Of a stretch of DNA of 64,000 nt, positions 7,491 through 8,142 are shown in pieces; position 1 is the first letter of the stretch, and each line of letters opens with the position of its first letter. Under the pieces are notes generated by a model. It was not told the DNA's origin. It made no database searches and saw only the letters and a program-made list of their open reading frames with translations. The DNA lies in contig NC_085842.1 of assembly GCF_035594765.1 (NCBI RefSeq), positions 9,361,256 to 9,425,255 of the forward strand. The letters are read 5' to 3'. Both the position numbers and the translations under genes were made by a program. Origin of the DNA: Anolis carolinensis (taxonomy: Eukaryota).

Positions 7491-7870
7491 ATTATGATGT
7501 AGCAGCTATAAAAGCCAATGTGATTCCAGGCTGACTCCAGATAGGAGGATTCTGTCTATATCCAAGGAAGTCACGGCCTCCTTTCTTCCGCTTTGGTCAG
7601 ACTCACCTGGAATGACCCTGTCTCCAGGTCTCGGTCCCACAATTCAAGACGGATATTGACAGGTCAGAATATCTCCAGAGACGGGATGTAGAGAAGGGCG
7701 ATGTCAGGATCTCCAATCCTTGACATCTCTGCTCAGCGGACAAAGAACAGATGCCAGCCATAAAGCAGGCCGGCCATAAAACATCAATGACCCTCTGGTA
7801 TGTAAGAGTCCCTATATAGGGTTGTTGTATGTCTTTCGGGCTGTGTGGCCATGTTCCAGAAGCATTCTCT

Positions 7871-7911
7871 CCTGACGTTTCGCCCACATCTATGGCAGGC
7901 ATCCTCAGAGG
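7871..7911 (-). ncRNA. Minimal type I hammerhead ribozyme (mirror copy)
   Basis: Exact reverse complement of 7937-7977. Confidence 0.82.
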
Positions 7912-7936
7912 TTGTGAGGTATGAGGTACCTCACAA

Positions 7937-7977
7937 CCTCTGAGGATGCCTGCCATAGATGTGGGCGAAACGTCAGG
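7937..7977 (+). ncRNA. Minimal type I hammerhead ribozyme (PLE-type)
   Basis: cct-CTGAGGA-t-gcctgc(catagat)gtgggc-GAAA-CGTC-agg: catalytic core, stem II, self-complementary ACGU stem III, stem I cct/agg. Predicted cleavage after C7974. Confidence 0.82.
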
Positions 7978-8142
7978 AGAGAATGCTTCTGGAACATGGC
8001 CACACAGCCCGAAAGACATACAACAACCCTGTGATCCCGGCCATGAAAGCCTTCGACAACACATAGTCCCTATATATGTGGCACAAAAGAAGGTTCTGGT
8101 ATTCAGTACAATAAAACTTGTTGGAATCTACCCGCGTGTGTC

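Follow-up and report, generated by a model that had tools for sequence, protein, structure and literature searches.

A hairpin that carries one hammerhead motif in each arm interrupts the 5′ LTR of a retroelement in Anolis carolinensis, exactly at the TATA box. How did this structure come to lie there, and does it do anything for the element that it interrupts? We analysed a 64,000-nucleotide stretch of DNA around it, referred to below as the window. The hairpin very probably derives from the Penelope-like element (PLE) Poseidon_Ac, as a copy that is truncated and folded back on itself; it is flanked by a 12-bp target-site duplication (TSD) and interrupts a chromovirus at its TATA box. It is likely the product of one twin-primed event and likely without function. 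Coordinates of the insert, its parts and the surrounding element are given in Table 1.

Table 1. Positions of the fold-back insert and of the chromovirus that carries it, numbered from the first letter of the window.
Feature	Positions	Strand	Remarks
5′ LTR, U3 part upstream of insert	7702–7818	+	identical to 13342–13458
TSD, left copy, 12 bp	7807–7818	+	TATA copy 7813–7820 = TATATAGG, fails TATAWAWR
Penelope-like fold-back insert	7819–8064		246 bp
Short inverted arm of Poseidon_Ac	7819–7923	-	element positions about +84/85 to -21; by-eye match to published template (PMC11167929)
Minimal type I hammerhead, minus copy	7871–7911	-	mirror of 7937–7977; pattern scan
Fold-back turn	7915–7931	.	read from sequence
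Long arm of Poseidon_Ac	7927–8064	+	element positions -19 to +119; start codon 7946–7948
Minimal type I hammerhead	7937–7977	+	cut after C7974; features as in PMC4209133
34-nt tail	8031–8064	+	on one arm; 30–40 bp tail described in PMC8557442 and PMC11167929
TSD, right copy	8065–8076	+	TATA box 8071–8078 = TATATATG, native context kept
Remainder of 5′ LTR	8077–8199	+	putative transcript 5′ end and self-primer 8101–8111; AATAAA 8110–8115
Primer-binding site, self-priming type	8202–8212	+	11/11 complementary to 8101–8111
Host gag and pol	8248–13341	+	gag 8248–9609; pol in three frames
3′ LTR, no insert (empty target site)	13342–13581	+	

The interrupted element has the makings of a Ty3/gypsy retrotransposon. 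Pfam matches to gag, protease, RT, RNase H, integrase, SH3 Tf2-1 and a C-terminal chromodomain follow one another in Ty3/gypsy order, with the pol frames divided into protease, an RT-RNase H-integrase core, and SH3 Tf2-1 with the chromodomain. A first-pass annotation, made from the letters of the window, had called the element self-priming, and the 11-nt complementarity between the start of its transcript and its primer-binding site bears this out: the two segments are predicted to pair with probabilities of 0.64–1.0, and position 8101, the putative start site, lies 30 nt past the TATA box at 8071. The Tf1/sushi chromoviruses, a Ty3/gypsy group, are described as self-priming (PMC6317226), and the domain set and the primer match that our element shares with them fit its assignment to that group. 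It departs from the chromoviruses described there in having pol in three frames and an interrupted 5′ LTR. Each step between the pol frames (region 8047–13341) is a -1 shift, though the LTRs are identical. Within 7400–8600, small indels separate the window from contigs of other sequencing runs, and some of the frame breaks may for this reason be assembly errors.

The element sits among a cluster of C2H2 zinc-finger exons (1815–3893, 36037–37938, 43616–44914 and 60972–62144), and its surroundings are duplicated at about 40500–42900, at 92–96% identity and without the element, with an empty site near 40900. The TSD of the chromovirus itself is imperfect, with GGCGA on the left (7697–7701) and GGCGG on the right (13582–13586) of identical LTRs; the corresponding positions in the empty paralogue are 40900–40904. 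The differing base equals the one that precedes the 3′ LTR and may be a retained unprocessed end. Two further reverse-transcriptase frames, probably of non-LTR elements, lie on the minus strand at 15907–18762 (951 aa) and 33271–34674 (467 aa).

The two LTRs of the chromovirus define the insert. When the insert and one TSD copy are removed, the 5′ LTR equals the 3′ LTR at 240/240 bases, and the 3′ LTR therefore shows the empty target. A native LTR feature is ruled out, as the insert is absent from the 3′ LTR. The 12-bp repeat that flanks the insert, AGTCCCTATATA, spans the TATA box as first annotated; a 12-nt repeat was found at 22 of 20,000 random pairs of ends in the window. The first annotation also described two TATA boxes in the LTR. 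The two copies are unequal, the upstream one departing from TATAWAWR and the downstream one matching it.

Between the two TSD copies, the insert folds back on itself almost completely. Its arms, at 7818–7921 and 7927–8030, are 104 nt each and 100% complementary around a loop of 5 nt, in agreement with the perfect 103-bp hairpin first reported; the arm length is 103 nt if A7818, a base common to the arm and the TSD, is set aside. The RNA fold of 7819–8110 has a predicted energy of -242.1 kcal/mol (z -32.7), and none of 200 shuffled sequences folded equally well. At the turn, a 7-nt unit (7915–7921) stands in tandem with its repeat (7922–7928), and these overlap an 8-nt palindrome at 7924–7931. 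The hairpin is asymmetric, with the 34-nt tail on one arm only. A MITE or foldback DNA transposon was considered and ruled out on account of the asymmetry of the ends and their match to a retroelement. Rfam searches on the hairpin returned microRNA hairpin matches only, all below the gathering score, of a kind that any perfect hairpin produces.

The retroelement in question is Poseidon_Ac (PAc), a PLE of the Penelope/Poseidon clade from Anolis carolinensis (Frangieh et al. 2024, PMC11167929). Compared by eye with the template printed in the methods of that paper, the long arm is identical at 138/138 letters across the pLTR-ORF junction of the element, and the Penelope-like origin proposed at first reading is secure in this respect. 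The insert shares with Poseidon_Ac the sequence from -19 to +119, the hammerhead with its cut site and the tail, and its target is AT-rich at one of the two putative nicks. Its long arm also finishes at the region where reverse transcription starts. According to the published account, reverse transcription of Poseidon_Ac begins 111–118 nt into the ORF, and the 30–40 bp tail is the stretch that separates two such start sites (PMC11167929). The long arm extends to +119, a single base past this range, and the short arm to +84/85, one tail length less than the long arm. The insert differs from Poseidon_Ac in extent, holding only 138 nt of the element and only the first 119 nt of its ORF, with the RT and GIY-YIG endonuclease coding sequence missing; it is a fragment and not an autonomous PLE.

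This form is the usual one for the family. An adjacent inverted, 5′-truncated copy and a one-sided tail of 30–40 bp are described as general features of PLE insertions (Craig et al. 2021, PMC8557442), and our insert has both the inverted arms and the tail. It deviates from the canonical unit in its extreme truncation, which leaves the fold-back alone with a loop of near-zero length. Opposed minimal hammerheads are likewise on record, as opposite-strand pairs 100–700 bp apart in Schistosoma (Cervera and De la Pena 2014, PMC4209133); the copies described here are only about 25 nt apart. The suggestion that the arrangement as such is special is therefore not upheld. What the available text of the Poseidon_Ac paper does not describe is the head-to-head join and the present locus (PMC11167929), and a limited literature search turned up no lizard study of Penelope hairpins or of nested insertions.

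The choice of target fits this identity in part. The Poseidon_Ac protein is reported to cut and extend both DNA strands and to favour AT-rich DNA, with a preference for a 5′-ATT-3′ motif in vitro (PMC11167929). AT-rich 8-mers (at least 7 A/T) make up 11/233 in the LTR and 112/5498 in the rest of the chromovirus; the LTR has three AT-rich spots, and the TATA box is among them. Since Poseidon_Ac is abundant and AT-seeking, the TATA box is an unsurprising place for it to land. The putative nick on the right falls within TATATATG and that on the left is not AT-rich; ATT is present at neither, which departs from the in vitro preference.

We next consider the hammerheads. A scan of the window with the minimal core pattern gave exactly two matches, at 7940–7974 on the plus strand and 7908–7874 on the minus strand. 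Both core elements (CUGANGA and GAAA) are present together with an NUH site, an extra base preceding helix II and a minimal, palindromic helix III. In the plus copy, helix I has 3 bp, an extra U stands ahead of a 6-bp helix II, and helix III is loopless. The motif resembles the minimal type I hammerheads of metazoan PLEs in the extra base before helix II, in G10.1-C11.1 and in the loopless, palindromic helix III, and it differs from them in its 3-bp helix I, which compares with 4–5 bp in the published motifs (PMC4209133). Identification as a minimal type I hammerhead is accordingly sound at the level of the motif, and the predicted cut after C7974 coincides with the published cut site of Poseidon_Ac, 26 nt past the start codon (PMC11167929). 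Rfam covariance models gave no hammerhead match at the gathering score, nor at E values up to 10. Each arm does contain a core, as first annotated, although the two lie on opposite strands and cannot be counted as a working pair: since they are complements of one another, any transcript contains one sense hammerhead together with its full antisense.

This bears directly on the proposal that the insert acts as a self-cleaving leader, in which cleavage after C7974 would release a shortened host transcript. No part of the core is missing, and it is the same as that of a ribozyme that cuts in vitro (PMC11167929); in isolation helix II is predicted to form with a pair probability of 0.90–0.99, though helix I stays below 0.01. 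With both arms present, the pair probability of the hammerhead helices falls to 0.000, and forcing the hammerhead fold on the two-arm transcript is predicted to cost 87.6 kcal/mol; a self-cleaving leader is unlikely for these reasons. The sense hammerhead is predicted to be locked in the duplex, with the two mirror copies blocking each other. Minimal hammerheads are described as weak and dependent on dimerization with a same-sense partner (PMC4209133), and cooperation of the two copies as a dimer is ruled out, as they are complementary. The published Poseidon_Ac ribozyme showed no cleavage without the element protein, and RNA-seq ends were not found at its cut site in the data described (PMC11167929). 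After a cut at 7974, moreover, the self-primer would begin 126 nt from the 5′ end of the RNA and not at that end. Taken with the predicted sequestration, these points make the leader extremely unlikely, and the original proposal is not sustained.

To place the insert among its relatives, we compared 7400–8600 with contigs from 4 of 24 sequencing runs. The summed contig depth is about 2e5–3e6 over the arms and 40–400 over the flank in the four runs; it is not a copy number, and it shows that the arm sequence is a very abundant repeat. Of 245 joints found in these four other runs, all 15 that were listed have a reverse arm linked to a forward one, and their turn points range from +57 to -20 and from +94 to -14. 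A near-symmetric turn with both hammerheads whole occurs in 0 of the 15 listed, a comparison in which joints past about -20 cannot appear. Elsewhere in the window, at 25093–25285, the family has left an older fold-back (86–87% identity), in which both arms reach the hammerhead and both cores are decayed. A one-armed copy at 58460–58589 has the tail and an 8-bp AT-rich TSD and is cut off just before the hammerhead; about 110 bp away, at about 58700–58840, is a further pLTR-like fragment. Several family copies end 10–20 nt upstream of the start codon, before the hammerhead (7927, 7923, 58589 and 25185). A preferred stop or an RNA 5′ end before the hammerhead is possible; the listed joints also scatter widely.

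The same contigs bear on whether the hairpin could be an artefact of assembly or of a fold-back during library preparation. The perfect complementarity of the arms is consistent with such an artefact, and among the 32 contig pieces listed (of more than 65,000) from the four other runs, none bridges an LTR-insert junction. In runs X1 and X8, flank contigs that start the LTR at 7700 lead on to the empty site, and uninterrupted LTR crosses 8065 in one contig of X6. Contigs drop rare variants and the flank has paralogues, so that these empty-site contigs are no proof that the insert is absent. Several features are not expected of an artefact: the 12-bp TSD, the 34-nt tail, the 7-nt slip at the turn, and ends that fall in the reverse-transcription start region reported for the element. 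The same form moreover recurs, in decayed state, at 25093–25285. We consider an artefact very unlikely.

A single insertion by Poseidon_Ac would account for these features as follows. The element protein would have nicked the two target strands 12 nt apart, and each nick would have served as the primer of a cDNA, with a different one of the two published internal start sites used in each case. The cDNAs may then both have run through the uncleaved hammerhead to about -20. The main template of Poseidon_Ac is reported to be uncleaved RNA, and its insertion to need no hammerhead cleavage (PMC11167929). A head-to-head join of the two cDNAs would have followed, in which a slip of 7 nt produced the tandem unit at the turn (7915–7928). 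The two hammerheads would be a by-product of this process, because the same stretch was copied twice. For the chromovirus, the native TATA box and the self-priming 5′ end would stay together, displaced by 258 bp from the upstream U3.

In LTR replication, the U3 of the progeny is copied from the 3′ LTR. Because the insert lies in the 5′ U3, it would not pass to the progeny of the host element and would be a dead end at one locus.

The remaining question is whether the hairpin could be expressed at this locus. Conceivably, the displaced LTR enhancer together with the upstream TATA copy gives rise to a hairpin RNA of 79–104 bp, or upstream read-through does so, and the RNA is diced into small RNAs that act against Poseidon_Ac. 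The hairpin is perfect and very stable, and it lies on the sense strand beside an intact-looking U3. Among known systems, it resembles the inverted-repeat Penelope copies of Drosophila, where siRNAs map to the inverted regions of rearranged copies (Evgen'ev 2013, PMC3681739): both are rearranged inverted-repeat copies with the potential to form double-stranded RNA; the small RNAs are observed in Drosophila and hypothetical here. The upstream TATA copy departs from the consensus, and a start from it, near 7843, would give a duplex of about 79 bp and not 103, with the self-primer buried inside the RNA. Many other fold-back copies exist, so that the present one would add little, and the siRNAs in Drosophila are reported to have silenced Penelope inefficiently (PMC3681739). 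We regard expression of a silencing hairpin as improbable on this evidence. A bolder version, in which the split promoter hands its enhancer and second TATA box to the fold-back and in one step gives rise to a newborn promoter-driven silencing hairpin while the host is crippled, is likewise improbable; if true, the hairpin would be directed at an active lizard retroelement of high abundance, against its 5′ end and its protein-binding region. In our preferred reading, that of a truncated Poseidon_Ac insertion, the insert likely lacks a function.

Overall, the locus is a nested insertion of recent date in which a known element takes the form usual for it, and in this sense it is ordinary and of a kind already known. 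It adds one more copy to an abundant element, and its value, which is modest, is that of a scar still young and clean. From the empty 3′ LTR the target can be read exactly as it was before insertion, and the pair of LTRs would record a 12-nt stagger between the nicks. The scar would also show that a single insertion employed both published start sites. Both are steps that the in vitro study, in its available text, left open (PMC11167929). Should the hairpin be transcribed and diced after all, it would provide an example of a vertebrate silencing locus born from a single nested insertion.
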